Source of the DNA: Bacillota bacterium
Lineage (GTDB): Bacteria; Bacillota; SHA-98; UBA4971
Reading direction: 5' to 3'
DNA length: 64,000 nucleotides
NCBI GenBank assembly: GCA_050261335.1
Contig: JBLNDE010000009.1
Coordinates: forward strand, 30,010-94,009
This document shows, piece by piece, positions 2,042 through 64,000 of the stretch. Under the pieces are notes generated by a model that was not told the origin of the DNA, did not search any database, and saw nothing but the letters and a program-made list of their open reading frames with translations. The translations under genes were made by a program, and so were the position numbers. How positions within the stretch are numbered: the stretch's first letter is position 1; every line of letters starts with the position of its first letter.

Positions 2042-2067
2042 ACAGCCGGAAGGAGGGCCAGGACGCC

Positions 2068-2484
2068 ATGCAGCCAGGAGATTTGGGCTATGATGACGCT
2101 CCTTCTCACGGGAACCACGAGAACATGGGCAACATCAAGATCGCCAGCGAGGTCGTGGGAGTGATCGCGGGCCTTGCTGCGACTGAAGTAGAGGGGATAG
2201 CCGGCATGAGCGGCGGCATCACCGGGGGCATCGCCGAGCTGCTCGGGCGCCGGAACCTGTCCAAGGGTGTCAAGGTCGAGGTCGGCGAGAAGGAGGCTGC
2301 CGTCGATCTGTTCGTGGTCGTGAACTACGGGGTGCGGATCCCTGACGTTGCCTGGAAGGTGCAGCAGAACGTGAAGAGGGCCATCGAGAGCATGACCGGG
2401 CGCGAGGTTGTGGAGGTCAACGTCCACGTACAGGGTGTGAGCTTCCCACACGAGGAGAAGCAGGAGGCCCCAAGGGTGCGTTGA
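2068..2484 (+). CDS. Asp23/Gls24 family alkaline-shock protein
   Basis: IASEVVGVIAGLAATEVEGIAGM... typical Asp23 fold; conserved position after accC. Confidence 0.85.
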   Translation: MQPGDLGYDDAPSHGNHENMGNIKIASEVVGVIAGLAATEVEGIAGMSGGITGGIAELLGRRNLSKGVKVEVGEKEAAVDLFVVVNYGVRIPDVAWKVQQNVKRAIESMTGREVVEVNVHVQGVSFPHEEKQEAPRVR

Positions 2485-3861: not shown

Positions 3862-5100
3862 ATGCTTACCATCTACTCGGTCTCCGACGTCGCAAGGCGC
3901 ATAAAGCAGGTCATCGAGGGCGATGAGTCCCTCTCCGGGCTCTGGGTGCGCGGGGAGATCTCGAACTTCACTCTCCATACTTCAGGACACATGTACTTCA
4001 GTCTCAAGGATGCCTCCGCCAGGCTGAAATGCGTGATGTTTCGCGGGAATAACATGTATCTCAAGTTCAAGCCGGCGGACGGGATGCTCGTGTTCGCGTA
4101 CGGCGCGGTGGGTGTATACGAAAAGGGCGGGGACGTGCAGTTGTACGTGGAGGACTTGATGCCTGCCGGCACCGGATCGCTGTACCTCGCGTTTCTGCAA
4201 CTCCGCGACAGGCTGGCGACGGAGGGCCTGCTCGACGCTGCGAGGAAGAGATCCCTGCCGAGGTTCCCGTCGGTGGTGGGCGTTGTGACCTCGCCCACCG
4301 GGGCCGCAGTGCGCGACATCATCACGGTGATAAGCCGCAGGGCCCCCGGCACGACGATCCTTCTCATACCCGCGCAGGTCCAGGGGGACGATGCGCCCGA
4401 AAGCATCGTGAAGGCGCTTGACCTCGTGAACCGCGCCTCGGCCTTCATCGACGTGGTCATCGTCGGCAGGGGCGGCGGGTCAATAGAGGACCTCTGGGCG
4501 TTCAACGATGAGAGGGTCGCGCGGGCCATCGCCGGGTGCAAGGTCCCGGTGATATCCGCTGTGGGACACGAGACGGACTTCACCATCGCCGACTTCGTTG
4601 CCGACCGCAGGGCTCCGACCCCGTCAGCCGGTGCGGAGATGGCCGTGCCTGACATGGCGGAGACGAGGCGGGCCGTTCTTCAGCTTTCGCTCCGGCTCGA
4701 GGCGGCGGCGAGGACGGAGGTCCGCAGGCACAGGGAGCGCCTGGAGCGCGTCGCCCGGTCCCACGTGTTCAGGTTTCCCCAGGAGATAACGAGGGAGCAC
4801 CGTCAGAGGCTCGCCGACGCGCAGCAGAGGATGTCGGCGGCCATGACGCATAAGCTATCCGGGGAGCGCGGGGCGTTCGGGGCGCTCGCTGCCCGACTCG
4901 ATGTCTTGAGTCCGCTGGGGACCCTCGCGCGCGGCTATGGGATGGTCCGAGGGCTTCCCGGCAGGCGCGTGGTGCGCACCGTGCGGGCTGTTGCGCCTGG
5001 GGATGACATAGAGGTGGTCCTCGTTGACGGGAGGATCGAGTGCGCCGTGACGGCGGTCGAGGAGGGAGGCCCCGATGCAGGGAGAGGACGCGAAGATTGA
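3862..5100 (+). CDS. xseA: Exodeoxyribonuclease VII large subunit
   Basis: [10 protein letters not shown]...GEISNF OB-fold N-terminus; ATG at 3862 with GAAGGTG RBS (ORF extends to 3829). Confidence 0.9.
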
Positions 5101-57954: not shown

Positions 57955-58177
57955 GCGTTCATCAGCTCCATTGCGTCGTCCAACTCGCAAGCGCTCTCAA
58001 TAGGCGCTCTCAAGGGGAGTATTCCCCCTTGGGGCCGCGATCCTGGGGCGAAAATCCTCGACCCGCGAAGAGGAATTTGATAGAAAATGTAGAATCATTT
58101 TGGGACACCGGTGGAGTACACTTACGGTGCCACAATCCGGTCGTTCCTGATTGTCTATGCCGGGAGGGGGGTGGACC

Positions 58178-59959
58178 ATGGGGGAGCGTCCACGGGTCCC
58201 TGGCGGTCAGAAGTCGCGACGCCCTGCGGAGTGGGACAAGCCGTGTCCTGGGGGACGTACACCCGACGCACGTGCTGAGAGGGGCGTTGCCTTCATCACC
58301 GTCCTCATCGCCGTCTCGTTCGTGTCCATCATTGTCATCGCATGCACAACCCTGGTCACCACAGCCGCGCGCACAGGTTCATGGTCCCTCGAGCGCACAA
58401 AGGCCCTCTACGCCGCGGAGGCCGGTATCAATCACTGGCTCTTCGAGGCGTCGATCGAGGAGAGCGGCGCTCCTCATCAGCACGGCCGAGGGCACGGCCA
58501 GGGCCAGCACAACGAAGGTGACGGATATGGCCATAGACATCGGCACGGTCAGGGTCAGGGTCAGGGTCAGGGTGGCGGGCACGGCACGTCTGAGATCGCA
58601 ACCATCGAGGTCAGCGGCGTGGTCAACGGTGTAGCATACATCGCGGGCGTCACTACGGGTGAGGGCGGCTCCAGCGGCACGTATCGCATCGTGTCTACCG
58701 CCGCGGCGCCTTCCCGTAGTACCGTAGTGTCACTGGAGGCAGGAACAGTGCCGGAGGCATGGCGGCATGTGGTGTACGCGTCAAGCACACCCGGGTCGCT
58801 CGACAGCCTCCTGCGCGGTCTTTTGAACTTGTTCGGAATTCCAGTGTATGACCTCTCAGGCACCACGCCGACAGTTGGCCAACTCTTCGGCCCAGTGTTG
58901 TTCCCGTGGGAAGGTAGAGACTCCTACGCCCCGAGTCTCGTCGACTCGGGCTGGGGAAGCTATCGTAGTACTGTCGCCCCTGAGATCGCCTACTGGAACC
59001 CGCCGTGTTTCGCGCAGGAAGTGACGGCAGACGTCCTCAACCCGGCAGGCGCTGGTCCCTTCTACTACAGAAACAGCGTTATAGGGACAATCGAGGGACC
59101 GGTCGACGGAGACCTGTACCTGGAAGACTGCGCGGTGGGGACTATCTCGGGACCGGTAAACGGTGGGATCTTCATCAGGAACACCAGGAAAAGCGCTGGA
59201 GTCGGGCGGATTGCCGGCGAGGTCAAAGGATCCATATGCATCGACTCGTCACAGAGAAGATTCGATAAGGAGGACATGTCATATCGTTCCACCCAGATCG
59301 GGGCTTCCGACTCCCGCTGCGTAGTAGGGGGTTCGGTCTATCTTAAAGGACGAGTCGAGACCCGGGGATTCCTGTGGTGGACATGGAAAACGAAGCCTGA
59401 CGTATTGGCGGTCTGCGGTCCAACAGCAACCGCAGGAGGCCCGACCGAGATCGCCGGGGGGGTGTTCGCAGAAGACGCGTCCATCTACGTCGGGGGAAAC
59501 GCGGAGATATCGCGCAGGCCAGGGACAGCGTTGCCAGCGGTTCTTTCAGACGGGTCGGTGGTATTGAACGGAGGCCCGGGCCCGATCCACCTGTCGGGGC
59601 CGGTATATTCCGCGGCTACGGTGTCCGGTTCCCTGAGCAACCTCGTTGCTTCGGCTCTGGTTGACGCCGGATTCCCCACAGGCTTCGCGGAACAGATAGG
59701 CGGCATAACCGTCGATGTGGCGAAATGGCTCGGATTCGATTTCGGTCTCATCGTGGCGGGCGATCCCGACGGAGGAAACTCCAACAGGGTCACGATTTCG
59801 GGGAACCTGGTGACTCCCGGGATGCCACTGCTGCTAGGCAGGCTTGCAGCCAACTACGATAGATCCCTTCTCGATCCCGCCAACCAGCCGCCCCACTTTA
59901 CGGGAGGCAGGCAGATCCTCGCGCCGATACGCGGCACCTGGGCTGTAGCTCGTAACTGA
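58178..59959 (+). CDS. Large PilX/GspK-like minor pilin with His/Gly/Gln-rich repeat tract and Gly-rich C-terminal region
   Basis: PilX_N-type hydrophobic N-terminus without Glu+5 (RGVAFITVLIAVSFV) followed by ALYAAEAGINHWL; GGGAGGGGGG RBS; ORF extends to 58151. Confidence 0.55.
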   Translation: MGERPRVPGGQKSRRPAEWDKPCPGGRTPDARAERGVAFITVLIAVSFVSIIVIACTTLVTTAARTGSWSLERTKALYAAEAGINHWLFEASIEESGAPHQHGRGHGQGQHNEGDGYGHRHRHGQGQGQGQGGGHGTSEIATIEVSGVVNGVAYIAGVTTGEGGSSGTYRIVSTAAAPSRSTVVSLEAGTVPEAWRHVVYASSTPGSLDSLLRGLLNLFGIPVYDLSGTTPTVGQLFGPVLFPWEGRDSYAPSLVDSGWGSYRSTVAPEIAYWNPPCFAQEVTADVLNPAGAGPFYYRNSVIGTIEGPVDGDLYLEDCAVGTISGPVNGGIFIRNTRKSAGVGRIAGEVKGSICIDSSQRRFDKEDMSYRSTQIGASDSRCVVGGSVYLKGRVETRGFLWWTWKTKPDVLAVCGPTATAGGPTEIAGGVFAEDASIYVGGNAEISRRPGTALPAVLSDGSVVLNGGPGPIHLSGPVYSAATVSGSLSNLVASALVDAGFPTGFAEQIGGITVDVAKWLGFDFGLIVAGDPDGGNSNRVTISGNLVTPGMPLLLGRLAANYDRSLLDPANQPPHFTGGRQILAPIRGTWAVARN

Positions 59960-59987
59960 CTTGCGAGAGGCAACGGGGGAATAGAGC

Positions 59988-60458
59988 TTGCTCAACCGCA
60001 GTTGTCTGGACAAGAGACAGGAGAGACGCGGGCCAGCACGGCACTTCTGTCGGCCAATCGGCAGCAGCAGGGGCTTCTCGCTCGTTGAGGTGCTCGTAGC
60101 GCTTCTTCTCGTAGCGATTCTTCTCGTGCCTGCCATGTCGAGCATTGCGTCTATGGTCACGACCGTAGCAAGAAGGAGCGCGGACGCACAGGCGCTTGAG
60201 CTTGCCCGCAGCACCCTTGAGGCAATCAAGGCCCTTGATGCTGGTTCCTTTTCGACGGATCCCGTCCCGCCGGTCACGGTGACCACGGCAGATGGGCGGA
60301 TGTCTTTCGACGTAGAGCGCGTGATGCGCGTGCGTGACGAGGATCCCAGTAACCCCGCCAGCAAGCTGTGGGAAGTGACCGTCTCTGTGTATGAACACCC
60401 GATGTCAGACGGCGCCACGCCGCTGTGTTCTCTGACGACGTTCGTGTGTCCACAATGA
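59988..60458 (+). CDS. Prepilin-type N-terminal cleavage/methylation domain protein (pseudopilin)
   Basis: G|FSLVEVLVALLLVAILL class-III signal motif; TTG start. Confidence 0.6.
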   Translation: MLNRSCLDKRQERRGPARHFCRPIGSSRGFSLVEVLVALLLVAILLVPAMSSIASMVTTVARRSADAQALELARSTLEAIKALDAGSFSTDPVPPVTVTTADGRMSFDVERVMRVRDEDPSNPASKLWEVTVSVYEHPMSDGATPLCSLTTFVCPQ

Positions 60459-60483
60459 CCTGCTGCGGAGGGACGCAAAGCCC

Positions 60484-61029
60484 GTGGAAACGCGCATGAA
60501 GCCATACCACCGAATGCCCGGCCAGAACGCTGGCTTCACACTGGTTGAAGTCCTCGTCGTCCTCGCGATAGTTCCTCTGGTACTCGCGATTACCTTCAGC
60601 GCCGTCTCCGTCGCTCTCCGAGGGTACAGGCTCGTTGAGGCGCGGTCCGCCCTGGCCTCCGGTGGGATGGTGGTAATAGAGACGCTCGGGCAGGATCTTC
60701 GAGGTGTGAGAGAGATCTACGACGACTCGTCTCAAACGCGCTTTCATGGACGCCAGCAAGATGGCGTCACGGATGTAGTCTACGAATTCGCGCCGCCGGG
60801 CGGGTCGGCGCCGGGCGCCCTCAGCCGGAACGGCGCGCAGCTCTTTGGGTCCGACACACACGTGACCTCATGCGAGTTCACCTATCTTGCGCCTGGCCCC
60901 GACCCGGAAGACCCCCTTCAAGAGGTGAACGATGTCAGAAGCGCGTCATCCATCAAGGTGCGCCTTGCGATAGAGCGCAAGTCCTCCTCCATGACCTTCG
61001 AATCGGTCTTCGATCTCAGAAACCTCTAA
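60484..61029 (+). CDS. Prepilin-type N-terminal cleavage/methylation domain protein (pseudopilin); start may be the ATG at 60514
   Basis: MPGQNAG|FTLVEVLVVLAIV motif. Confidence 0.6.
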   Translation: METRMKPYHRMPGQNAGFTLVEVLVVLAIVPLVLAITFSAVSVALRGYRLVEARSALASGGMVVIETLGQDLRGVREIYDDSSQTRFHGRQQDGVTDVVYEFAPPGGSAPGALSRNGAQLFGSDTHVTSCEFTYLAPGPDPEDPLQEVNDVRSASSIKVRLAIERKSSSMTFESVFDLRNL

Positions 61030-61060
61030 ACGTTAGAGAAATCTAATCGTGGTCTAACCG
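61030..61060 (+). promoter_or_regulatory. Conserved 31-bp motif, copy 1 (TTAGAG-N3-TCTAAT-N5-TCTAACCG)
   Basis: 22/31 identical to a second copy at 63881-63911; contains direct repeat TCTAAT/TCTAAC at 11-bp spacing and an inverted TTAGAG. Confidence 0.5.
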
Positions 61061-61166
61061 ACGCTTCACCTCCCCGGGCTAAACTCAGAATCGGCAGGAG
61101 GGGATGGCACCGCTGACGGGAGCCGTCCCGCCCGCCGGATTTGACCCGGAAGGAGGTGATACTCCA

Positions 61167-61508
61167 ATGTCACGCCATGCAAAGCTCCTCGCCGTGGTCT
61201 TCGCAATAAGCCTCGCGATTGCAACCTCCATCTACGCGTACGCGCAGTCCGCAGGCGGCGCAGACAACACGGTCGCAACTCCCCAAGAGACAACGCAGGT
61301 AACCGCCTGGGATGCGTCCGGCAGCGGCACCCAGGTTGGGGCCGATGACGAGGCTACCGGATCTCAGGAGACAGTCGAGTCCGAATCCGAGGCCGAGGTC
61401 GAGGCTGAAGAGTCGGAAGCTGCTGAGGCAGCAAATGACCCGGTGGAGGCGCCCGGGACTCCCGGCTATGAGGAAGGCAACTTCGACGGACAGCACGAGT
61501 TCAAGTAA
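61167..61508 (+). CDS. Secreted acidic low-complexity protein (Asp/Glu/Thr/Ser-rich)
   Basis: Signal peptide MSRHAKLLAVVFAISLAIATSIYAYA; AGGAGGTGA RBS; ORF extends to 61104. Confidence 0.55.
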   Translation: MSRHAKLLAVVFAISLAIATSIYAYAQSAGGADNTVATPQETTQVTAWDASGSGTQVGADDEATGSQETVESESEAEVEAEESEAAEAANDPVEAPGTPGYEEGNFDGQHEFK

Positions 61509-61692
61509 AGCCGACAGCGCATTGCGCCAAGACAACGAACGGGCAACCTAGCCCGGGTCGCGGCGGGTCTATTCTGGACAGGTTCGGGCGACGCGGTGCG
61601 GTGCTCCGGCGCCCCTTCGGGGCGCCCGGGGCACCTCGTCGTCTGAGTTGAGAGCCTGGAGTGCTGACACCCGGTTGCGACCCTCGCCAGAC

Positions 61693-61721
61693 TTGCATCG
61701 ACCTCCAAGTAGTGGGATAAT
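61693..61721 (+). promoter_or_regulatory. sigma-A promoter TTGCAT-17-TGGGATAAT upstream of the response regulator
   Basis: Read directly. Confidence 0.45.
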
Positions 61722-61761
61722 GGCTGAGGCCAGGGGTCTGGAGGAGGGGAGGGGATGAGGC

Positions 61762-62436
61762 TTGAGGATTCTCGTAGTCGAAGACGAGGACAAGATCGCG
61801 GCTTTCATCAAGAAGGGCCTGGAAGAGGAAGGGTACGCCGTGGACGCGGTGGGGGACGGCGAAACGGCCATCGACTATGCCCTGTCCGCTGACTACGACG
61901 TCATAGTCCTCGACGTCATGCTTCCCGGAAAGGACGGTTTCGCCGTGTGCCGCGAACTACGAATGCGCGGCCTTCGGGCGCCCATCCTCATGCTGACCGC
62001 GCGGGACGCCGTGGACGACCGCGTGAATGGTCTGGATGCAGGCGCCGACGATTACCTGGTCAAACCCTTCGCGTTCAGAGAGCTTGTGGCGCGGGTCCGC
62101 GCCCTCCTGAGACGCCCGCGGGACGTCGTCTCTTCGCGGCTTCAGGCGGGCGACCTCGTGCTGGACACGCGAACCCACGTGGCTGAGCGAGGTGGCCGCA
62201 AGATAGATCTCACCTCCCGCGAATACGCGCTGCTCGAGTTCCTGATGCGCAACAAGAACCAGGTCTTGACCCGCACGCAGATAGCCGAGCACGTCTGGGA
62301 CTACGACTTCCTCAGCGAGTCCAACATAGTGGACGTATACATCAGGTATCTTCGCGTCAAGATCGACGCGGACTTCGAGCCGAAGCTCATACAGACGGTG
62401 CGGGGCGCAGGTTACAGGATCTCGGATCAGGCGTAG
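61762..62436 (+). CDS. OmpR/PhoB-family response regulator
   Basis: REC (D-D-K) + winged-helix trans_reg_C; TTG start after GGAGGGGAGGGG. Confidence 0.85.
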   Translation: MRILVVEDEDKIAAFIKKGLEEEGYAVDAVGDGETAIDYALSADYDVIVLDVMLPGKDGFAVCRELRMRGLRAPILMLTARDAVDDRVNGLDAGADDYLVKPFAFRELVARVRALLRRPRDVVSSRLQAGDLVLDTRTHVAERGGRKIDLTSREYALLEFLMRNKNQVLTRTQIAEHVWDYDFLSESNIVDVYIRYLRVKIDADFEPKLIQTVRGAGYRISDQA

Positions 62437-62481
62437 GCACCCCGAGGCCACCGTGCCGGAAAGGGGTGGGAAGGCGCGAGG

Positions 62482-63876
62482 GTGGACGAGGAGGGACGGG
62501 AAAGGGTGTTCGAGAAGACGGTCCCGATACGAATACGTCTTACCGCGTGGTACATGGTCCTCGTGGCCATCACGCTGGCCGCGTTCGGGGGATTCGTCTA
62601 CCTCAACCTGGCTCGGAGCCTTTATGCCGAGGTGGACGGAGGTCTGCGCAGCCTCGCACAGGAGGCCGCCCGCGGGATCGACAATGAGGACGGCGCCCTG
62701 AGCTTCCAGAACGCCGATACCGCCCCCTCTGTCGCCGGCGGCGTCATCATGCGCCTTCTGGATGAGTCGGGTCACACGACAGACGGGATCGGAGACTACG
62801 CCGGGTTCCCGATGCCGAAACGCCTCCAGGCGGGGTTCTCGACCGCACGCATATCAGGCGAGCCATGGCGCGTATACACAGTGCTCATCAAGCTGCCGTC
62901 GGCGAGCGCAACCTGCGCCCTCCAGGTCGCGCGGCCACTTAGCGCGGTGGACGAAACCCTCGAGCGAGTGGCAGGCGTCCTCGCGCTGGGCATCCCCCTC
63001 GTGCTCCTTGTGGCGACACTGGGTGGCGTCTTCATCTCGGGACGGGCCCTCGGCCCCATCGATCGGGTAACGCGGCTTGCCCGGGACATCGGCGCAGAGG
63101 ACCTCTCCCGCAGGCTGAACCTTTCCCTTCCCGATGACGAGGTCGGACGGCTCGCAAGGACGTTCGACTGCATGCTGGCGCGCCTCCAGGCGGCGTTCGA
63201 GAGGGAGAGGCGGTTCACTCAGGACGCGGCCCATGAGCTTCGTACGCCGCTCACGATAATGAAGGGCACCGTTGACGTTGCGCTTTCACGGCCGAGGGAG
63301 GCTCCGGACTACAGGGCCGCACTCGCCGAAATCGAAACCCAGGCGAATCGCCTGATTCATCTCGCGGAGAGCCTTCTCGTGCTGGCCAGGGCGGAGTCCG
63401 CAAGGCCGGACCTCAACGTGGAATCTCTCGACCTCGCCGTTCTCATAAGCGGCATAGCGGAGCAGCTCCAGCCCCTCGCAGTGGCAAGAGGCGTCACCGT
63501 TCGCTACAGCGGACCCGGGACACTTTGGCTGCGCGGCGACCAGGATCGGCTCCTCCGCCTCTTCCTGAACCTCCTCGACAACGCGATCAAACACACGCCA
63601 GAGGGAGGGAACGTGGCCATAGAGGTGACGCGAGGCACCGGGGTGGTCGAAGTGGCCGTCAAGGACAGCGGCCCTGGCATCCCGCCAGAGCACCTTCCTC
63701 ACATCTTCGAACGCTTCTACCGCGTGGACAAAGCCCGCTCGCGCAGCGAGGGCGGCGTGGGCCTGGGGCTTGCCATCGCAAAGCACATCGCACAGCTTCA
63801 CGGCGGCGACATCCGCGTTGCGTCCACACCTGGTAAGGGCAGCGTCTTCACAGTGAGCCTCCCGACGGCAGCGTAG
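62482..63876 (+). CDS. Sensor histidine kinase
   Basis: Two TM, HAMP, H-box HELRTPLT, N/G1/G2 boxes. Confidence 0.85.
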   Translation: MDEEGRERVFEKTVPIRIRLTAWYMVLVAITLAAFGGFVYLNLARSLYAEVDGGLRSLAQEAARGIDNEDGALSFQNADTAPSVAGGVIMRLLDESGHTTDGIGDYAGFPMPKRLQAGFSTARISGEPWRVYTVLIKLPSASATCALQVARPLSAVDETLERVAGVLALGIPLVLLVATLGGVFISGRALGPIDRVTRLARDIGAEDLSRRLNLSLPDDEVGRLARTFDCMLARLQAAFERERRFTQDAAHELRTPLTIMKGTVDVALSRPREAPDYRAALAEIETQANRLIHLAESLLVLARAESARPDLNVESLDLAVLISGIAEQLQPLAVARGVTVRYSGPGTLWLRGDQDRLLRLFLNLLDNAIKHTPEGGNVAIEVTRGTGVVEVAVKDSGPGIPPEHLPHIFERFYRVDKARSRSEGGVGLGLAIAKHIAQLHGGDIRVASTPGKGSVFTVSLPTAA

Positions 63877-63880
63877 AGGC

Positions 63881-63911
63881 GGATTAGAGCTTTCTAATGC
63901 AGCTCTAACCG
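63881..63911 (+). promoter_or_regulatory. Conserved 31-bp motif, copy 2
   Basis: GGATTAGAGCTTTCTAATGCAGCTCTAACCG directly after the kinase stop. Confidence 0.5.
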
Positions 63912-64000
63912 CCCCTTCATCTGCACCTACGACACTTGACCTGATCCCGGTCACGTCCCGAGATACCAGTGTAGCCAGGCGCGCTGCAGACCACGGATGG

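Follow-up and report, generated by a model that had tools for sequence, protein, structure and literature searches.

The operators of regulators of the OmpR/PhoB family are a well-known kind of element. At promoters controlled by PhoB-type activators, the pho box is found 10 bp upstream of the -10 box. A consensus for the pho box has been described (PMC3465305). The streptococcal regulator CovR (CsrR) recognizes the hexamer ATTARA, and the motif derived from ChIP-seq consists of two such hexamers in tandem separated by a 5-bp spacer (PMC8893699). The copper box bound by CusR, PcoR, CopR and CzcR is a hexamer-N4-hexamer palindrome with half-sites TGTCAT or TGTAAT, i.e., ATGACA-N4-TGTCAT in E. 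coli and ATTACA-N4-TGTAAT in Pseudomonas (PMC11195947). ArlR of Staphylococcus aureus, another member of the OmpR family, has been reported to bind a head-to-head inverted repeat (PMC6868441).

We have analyzed a stretch of 64,000 nucleotides from a Bacillota bacterium (referred to below as the window; G+C ca. 64%), in which a short motif is found on both sides of a two-component system. We consider it likely that both copies are the operator of the CusR/CovR-like regulator encoded between them, which would activate transcription in place of a -35 box. A preliminary description had already proposed that the motif is the site of the adjacent OmpR/PhoB-family regulator and defines a small regulon, and every comparative test that we ran supports this reading: the site is conserved at orthologous positions, is found across phyla together with homologous regulators and kinases, keeps a fixed spacing of 10 nt to the -10 box and shows covariation between a residue of the recognition helix and a base of the site.

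The two copies and their predicted promoters

The 31-bp motif is present at 61030–61060 (copy 1) and 63881–63911 (copy 2), exactly where it had been placed, and a recount gave 21 identical positions out of 31 instead of the 22 claimed. The core TTAGAG-N3-TCTAAT-N5-TCTAACCG is found in both copies (61033–61060 and 63884–63911). As stated before, it does not occur elsewhere in the 64 kb: a search of the window with the 28-nt core TTAGAGNNNTCTAATNNNNNTCTAACCG returned only these two matches even with three mismatches, dinucleotide-preserving shuffles gave none (0 of 100, with a chance expectation of 0), and a looser template of four hexamers recovered the same two sites and no others. The likeness extends downstream, with 36 of 55 positions identical between the copies.

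The half-sites had been described as one inverted plus two direct. These three are indeed there, but the description was too short and missed a third direct hexamer and a -10 box. The complete layout of each copy is ATTAGA-N4-TCTAAT-N5-TCTAAC-N5-CTTCAY-N10 followed by the -10 hexamer (individual hexamers in Table 1), with the three direct hexamers repeated every 11 bp and the last of them ending 10 bp before the -10 box. The three direct hexamers at 11 bp and the inverted one at N4 are shared by both copies and their orthologues, and the 11-bp spacing would set the hexamers on one face of the helix.

Table 1. Features at and between the two sites (window coordinates; promoter elements and operators are predicted).
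Feature	Position	Strand	Remarks
Operator A (proposed, copy 1)	61032..61069	+	inverted GTTAGA 61032–61037; direct TCTAAT 61042–61047, TCTAAC 61053–61058, CTTCAC 61064–61069
-10 hexamer TAAACT (putative), small-protein promoter	61080..61085	+	10 nt past last hexamer
Secreted acidic protein, 113 aa (putative target gene 1)	61167..61508	+	signal peptide, Asp/Glu-rich linker
G+C-rich hairpin 3' of small-protein gene (read from the sequence)	61600..61635	+	kept in L002, L004, L006, L010
Candidate promoter of regulator-kinase operon, TTGCAT-N17-GATAAT	61693..61721	+	kept in L002, L006, L010
Response regulator, OmpR/PhoB family	61762..62436	+	Response_reg + Trans_reg_C; recognition helix SNIVDVYIRYLR
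Sensor histidine kinase	62482..63876	+	HAMP, HisKA, HATPase_c (Pfam)
Operator B (proposed, copy 2)	63883..63920	+	inverted ATTAGA 63883–63888; direct TCTAAT 63893–63898, TCTAAC 63904–63909, CTTCAT 63915–63920
-10 hexamer GACACT (putative, weak), PAP2 phosphatase-DedA promoter	63931..63936	+	same 10-nt offset as operator A

Two further half-site-like sequences were seen at the edges of the elements. Operator B has an extra weak, degenerate half-site, CGTAGA (63872–63877), 11 bp upstream of the inverted hexamer, which overlaps the kinase stop codon and renders the site partly symmetric. At copy 1 the stop codon of the preceding pilin-like gene and the inverted hexamer together form a perfect inverted repeat, CTCTAA-ACG-TTAGAG (61023–61038); its counterpart in the sister locus L080 is CTCTAA-AGG-TTAGAG, and L002 and L006 have CTTTGA or CTCTGA at this place. 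This repeat may be an extra half-site or the outcome of coding constraint.

At the -10 position of operator A the pattern T-A-n-A-n-T is invariant in seven orthologous loci, and the small-protein transcript is predicted to start near 61092–61094. The corresponding position of operator B reads GACACT, GATACT, TATACT or TATGCT among the orthologues. A consensus promoter scan detected neither a -35 consensus nor a sigma-70 -35/-10 pair near the sites, which is what would be expected of an activator-dependent promoter, and the consensus promoter and terminator scan called neither kind of signal at either copy. The element stands where a -35 box would be and keeps a constant spacing to the -10, in a class II (pho-box-like) arrangement. 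If the -10 hexamer is set at -12 to -7, the inverted hexamer comes to lie at about -61 to -55 and the direct ones at about -50 to -45, -39 to -34 and -28 to -23.

Genes around the sites

The genes and sites follow in the order pilin-like gene (60484–61029), copy 1, acidic-protein gene, regulator, kinase and copy 2; the pilin-like genes (58151–61029) are thus directly upstream of copy 1 and not downstream. Both placements given in the preliminary description hold, copy 1 being located upstream of the acidic-protein gene (106 nt from its end to the ATG at 61167) and copy 2 directly past the kinase gene, where it begins 5 nt after the stop codon (63874–63876). What follows copy 2 beyond the window can be read from a Logan contig that carries an identical kinase: a PAP2 phosphatase gene and a DedA/VTT gene, forming an operon that begins ca. 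160 nt past the window end (L001 1703–3001). In NCBIfam their products weakly resemble undecaprenyl-diphosphatase and UptA, the transporter of undecaprenyl-phosphate.

The acidic protein has no match in Pfam or NCBIfam. It ends in a peptide of 22 residues, DPVEAPGTPGYEEGNFDGQHEF, that is invariant, in contrast to the variable acidic linker, and that stays the same even across loci with kinases only 58% identical. This peptide might be released by processing or might interact with the sensor domain of the kinase. The gene is found upstream of the regulator also in L002 (385–729), L004 (3173–3520), L006 (4539–4883), L008 (4433–4771), L009 (4827–5159) and L010. The hairpin at its 3' side may terminate transcription or insulate the regulator genes that follow. 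A separate promoter for regulator and kinase is conceivable at TTGCAT-N17-GATAAT, which scores below the threshold of the consensus scan. After this sequence L002, L006 and L010 have an extra insertion of ca. 200 nt that the window lacks (the intervals from small-protein gene to regulator are 730–1145 in L002 and 4884–5286 in L006).

The regulator encoded next to the sites is of the winged-helix type. Its best NCBIfam match is the heavy-metal response regulator TIGR01387 (275.8 bits, cutoff 279.2), followed by CusR, HprR and RppA, and that of the kinase is the heavy-metal sensor kinase TIGR01386 (276.9 bits, cutoff 292.55). Both proteins stay just under the cutoffs. The closest named homologues of the kinase come from metagenome-assembled genomes (MAGs) of Bacillota.

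Conservation in related loci

We compared nine loci, selected by protein, with homologues of the kinase (49–96% identical), among them L080, which was drawn from the pattern scan described below. All nine contain the complete layout, i.e., inverted hexamer, N4, three direct hexamers, N10 and -10 box, located ahead of the small-protein gene, past the kinase gene or in both places. The recurring gene order is small protein, regulator, kinase, PAP2 and DedA, and in the more distant relatives regulator, kinase and PepSY, so that the copy after the kinase gene precedes either a PAP2 phosphatase-DedA operon or a PepSY gene. Operator A is kept in L080, L002, L004, L006, L010, L008 and L009, and operator B, after the kinase gene, in L080, L002, L006, L010, L007 and L011. 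In the alignments the invariant columns are those of the hexamers and the -10 box, and the flanks diverge. The leader around the site has diverged as well in the relatives at 58–60% identity, where the hexamer is often TCTCAT and its inverted partner can then be ATGAGA. The element is thus kept at orthologous promoters and travels with the regulator, as an operator would.

Distribution across phyla

The pattern TTAGAR-N3-TCTMAY-N5-TCTMAY-N5-YYTMAY was searched in 185,579 genomes, one per species (GTDB), and 88 sites in 85 loci were obtained, in Armatimonadota, Rubrobacteraceae, Omnitrophota, Acidobacteriota, Nitrospirota, Myxococcota, Planctomycetota, Bacteroidota, Bacillota and other groups. 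More than half of the sites (58 of 88) belong to loci with a G+C of at least 0.55, where chance alone would give less than one match in the entire collection. In about 45 of the 85 loci a regulator 40–91% identical to that of the window is encoded within a few kb, usually together with a kinase. Most often the genes are arranged as regulator, kinase, site and target gene, with the site 0–350 nt past the kinase as in copy 2, and some sites are upstream of, or divergent from, the regulator gene.

Several positions that the pattern left free are also constrained. The base at position -1 is A in 83% of the sites, completing ATTAGA, and a C tends to come after each TCTAAT. Exactly 10 nt past the third hexamer, positions 48–53 read T (53%), A (67%), n, A (54%), a, T (73%) in 78 non-redundant sites. 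Linkage to the regulator, completion of the hexamer and a phased -10 box, all of them unselected, argue that the sites found are functional relatives of those in the window. The scan hits say nothing about how universal the four-hexamer layout is, because the pattern fixed the architecture; on this point the nine loci selected by protein are the informative ones.

The genes downstream of the sites include response regulators (autoregulation), HtrA/DegP proteases, PepSY proteins, subtilases, pilin-like DUF1559 proteins and many small secreted proteins without Pfam domains. One Armatimonadota MAG, AS09scLD_256, contains 11 full sites on nine contigs (L018, L019, L030, L035, L041, L049, L074 and L088; L086 comes from a different MAG, AS09scLD_344). 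At least six of them are upstream of genes with a prepilin-type N-terminal region and DUF1559, which suggests a large regulon in this organism.

Some individual loci deserve mention. In L024, L025, L053 and L056 (Myxococcota, related ‘delta’ MAGs and Candidatus Binatus) the site precedes a protease of the HtrA/DegP type (trypsin-like plus PDZ), and in L024, L025 and L056 it comes after a detected regulator-kinase pair, an arrangement that hints at a role of the family in envelope or secretion stress. The Armatimonadetes locus L082 (ca. 2050–2142, minus strand) has a run of at least five TCTAAT-type hexamers repeated every 11 bp, which shows that there need not be exactly three direct repeats. 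A small secreted protein is the target in L067 (3614–3946), L083 (896–1228) and L034 (2316–2639); these three have a faint, sub-threshold resemblance to the copper-binding CusF (E 0.004), the sole hint of metals among the targets examined.

Recognition helix and covariation with the site

The regulators linked to the sites all carry the helix N-[VI]-[VI]-D-V-Y-[VI]-x-Y-L-R, even though their overall identity is merely 40–60%. The residue at x varies together with the fourth base of the hexamer: Asn goes with A (60 of 66) and Gly, Ser or Ala with C (24 of 26), a group that spans several phyla, and Arg, the residue of the window regulator, is mixed (37 A, 17 C). Counted by locus, and with phylogeny ignored, the covariation is significant (Fisher's exact test, p = 7e-6). 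The helix of the window regulator has two differences from that of CovR (3rjp), TNVVDVYIRYLR, both conservative, and in comparisons with solved structures its C-terminal domain aligns with CovR and with ArlR. As a whole protein the best structural match was Thermotoga DrrD (1kgs); a regulator of this type was rejected, since the DrrD helix, SDVLRSHIKNLR, is unlike NVVDVYIxYLR.

Comparison with the described systems

The clearest likeness at the level of the hexamer is with CovR. ATTAGA, read as TCTAAT on the other strand, is an ATTARA, 5-bp spacers are found here too, and the recognition helix of the window regulator is of the CovR type. However, CovR sites are degenerate, are found in A+T-rich DNA and mostly mediate repression, whereas here the hexamers are sharp, four in number with one inverted, located in DNA of 64% G+C and at a fixed distance from the -10 box. 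The two systems do not appear to be orthologous either: the proteins of the window are matched best by the models for heavy-metal regulators and kinases, for RppAB and for PhoBR, and no CovR or CovS model was among the 25 best NCBIfam matches of regulator and kinase.

The copper box has the same geometry as ATTAGA-N4-TCTAAT and the same alternative of A or C at the fourth hexamer position, and the family models that fit both proteins best are precisely the heavy-metal ones. In contrast, position 2 is C and not G in every defined hexamer of our sites, unlike the half-sites TGTAAT and TGTCAT; the helix has DVY where PcoR, a copper-box binder with the helix TNVIDVAVRRLR, has DVA; two more direct hexamers are present; and instead of genes for copper efflux or oxidases, the targets comprise a gene for a small acidic protein and a PAP2-DedA operon. 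With the pho box the sites share direct repeats of 11-bp period in place of the -35 box, but the hexamer sequence differs, an extra inverted hexamer is found upstream, and the PhoB model scores below the heavy-metal models. The DNA-binding domain of ArlR is closely similar to that of the window regulator, and its reported binding to an inverted repeat makes the inverted hexamer plausible as a protein site here, although the ArlR site, ATNGYANNTTAANNTRCNAT, differs in sequence and has no tandem direct repeats.

Proposed mechanism and alternative explanations

In the mechanism that we propose, the operator would extend from about -61 to -23 and be made up of four hexamers of the ATTARA type, the first inverted and the other three direct. 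The kinase would phosphorylate the regulator, which would then occupy the hexamers, probably as two dimers, and the promoter-proximal pair, at the pho-box position 10 bp from the -10 box, would recruit RNA polymerase. The expected output is expression of the small acidic secreted-protein gene from site A and of the PAP2 phosphatase-DedA operon from site B. The comparisons establish the layout of the sites, its conservation, the link to the regulator family, the constant phase with a -10 signal and the covariation of protein and DNA; what we infer is the binding, the occupancy by two dimers, activation as opposed to repression, the start sites and the signal sensed.

Copy 2 might have a second job in this lineage, in which the hairpin GGCGGAUUAGAGCU...AGCUCUAACCGCC would terminate or stabilize the mRNA of regulator and kinase and shield the promoter that follows. 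Its fold is strong and specific (13 bp, -26.8 kcal/mol, z -4.2) and located at the 3' end of the kinase gene, 1 nt after the stop codon (63875–63914 in the window; about 5045–5085, minus strand, in L080). The only change in the L080 hairpin, A to G, retains a G-U pair, and at least 20 other loci have a site no more than 100 nt from the end of the kinase match. On the other hand, the stem lacks the U-run of an intrinsic terminator (G+C-rich stem plus T-run) and the terminator scan was silent, the extension of the stem is not kept in more distant relatives, and a palindromic operator yields some hairpin for free. We regard this additional role as doubtful. The same L080 change, TTGGAG for TTAGAG, leaves a weaker half-site in the DNA while the G-U pair is kept in RNA.

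A different possibility is that operator and regulator are those proposed here but that the bound regulator represses by shutting out RNA polymerase, in the way CovR acts on the majority of its targets. In favour of this, the recognition helix belongs to the CovR type, CovR is mainly a repressor (PMC8893699), and the hexamers reach about -23, within the polymerase footprint. However, there is no -35 hexamer to occlude, the proximal pair at 10 bp from the -10 box has the pho-box geometry of PhoB-type activators, the strictly fixed phase with the -10 is typical of activation, and the poor -10 box of site B would need help. Repression therefore seems unlikely to us, somewhat more so than a second job for copy 2, and activation is the reading that we retain.

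The preliminary description had also offered an attenuator, in which TTAGA would pair with either of the TCTAA copies to form mutually exclusive hairpins in the leader of the downstream gene. TTAGA is complementary to TCTAA, and the fold of copy 2 with its G-U-preserving change in L080 would fit. Against this, the element is upstream of the predicted start, and with a conserved -10 box downstream of it the regulated transcript should not include the element, if the promoter is the one predicted. The fold of copy 1 is not significant (z -0.64), and outside the hexamers no pairing above the shuffled expectation was found in 77 non-redundant sites. The partner hexamer is TCTCA in 18–22% of the sites, i.e., a mismatch in the middle of a stem of 5–6 bp, and the stem extension of copy 2 is limited to the window and its sister L080, being missing in L002, L006, L010, L007 and L011. 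There is no U-tract, and an Rfam scan of 60800–64000 with E up to 10 gave only matches at chance level. We found no support for alternative hairpins, and consider an attenuator very improbable.

One more pairing was noticed at copy 1. The segment CTTCACCTCCCCGGG (61064–61078) comprises the third hexamer and the spacer to the -10 box. A complementary stretch, CCCGGAAGGAGGTGA, is located at the ribosome-binding site of the small-protein gene. The 141-nt leader (pairing region 61064–61165) folds with -66.8 kcal/mol (z -5.4). As an anti-Shine-Dalgarno device the pairing of CTTCACCTCCCCGGG was rejected: it shows almost no covariation, L008 and L009 do not have it, and the segment is upstream of the predicted start. 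It would form solely in read-through transcripts from the upstream pilin-like genes.

Finally, since the tie between regulator and site is drawn from sequence, the motif could in principle be read by another DNA-binding protein or be the remnant of a small mobile repeat, with the two-component system adjacent by coincidence, but this can hardly be credited when homologous regulators are linked to the site in ca. 45 of 85 loci of many phyla, a helix residue and a base covary, and the ca. 55 nt shared have neither terminal repeats nor target duplications and occupy orthologous positions in relatives.

Significance

A limited literature search retrieved no prior description of this operator, of the four-hexamer layout or of this branch of regulators outside the work on streptococcal CovR, and within its incomplete coverage ATTARA was associated only with streptococcal and lactococcal CovR. 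As a possibility that we put forward tentatively, the sites would be the clean, G+C-rich operator of an undescribed pan-bacterial branch of CusR/CovR-like regulators, the layout (one head-to-head and one head-to-tail pair, with 10 bp to the -10 box) and the rule for base 4 would amount to a recognition code, and copy 2 would perhaps double as a hairpin that ends the kinase transcript. If this were true, Asn versus Gly, Ser or Ala in the helix, specifying A versus C at the fourth position of the hexamer, would be a readable code transferable to CovR, for which a binding motif has been difficult to establish.

The two sites provide a concrete candidate operator and a minimal regulon for an uncharacterized two-component system found again in many little-studied phyla. 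In this Bacillota bacterium the proposed regulon comprises the small acidic secreted protein and the PAP2 phosphatase-DedA operon, which weakly resembles genes for undecaprenyl-phosphate recycling; in other phyla the same site is found ahead of HtrA-type proteases, PepSY proteins and pilin-like genes. Since the hexamers are conspicuous in G+C-rich DNA, they give a plain view of how helices that read ATTARA may be arranged on DNA, and the covariation of one helix residue with one base points to a simple specificity-swap test. The site is widespread, sharply defined and testable at once.
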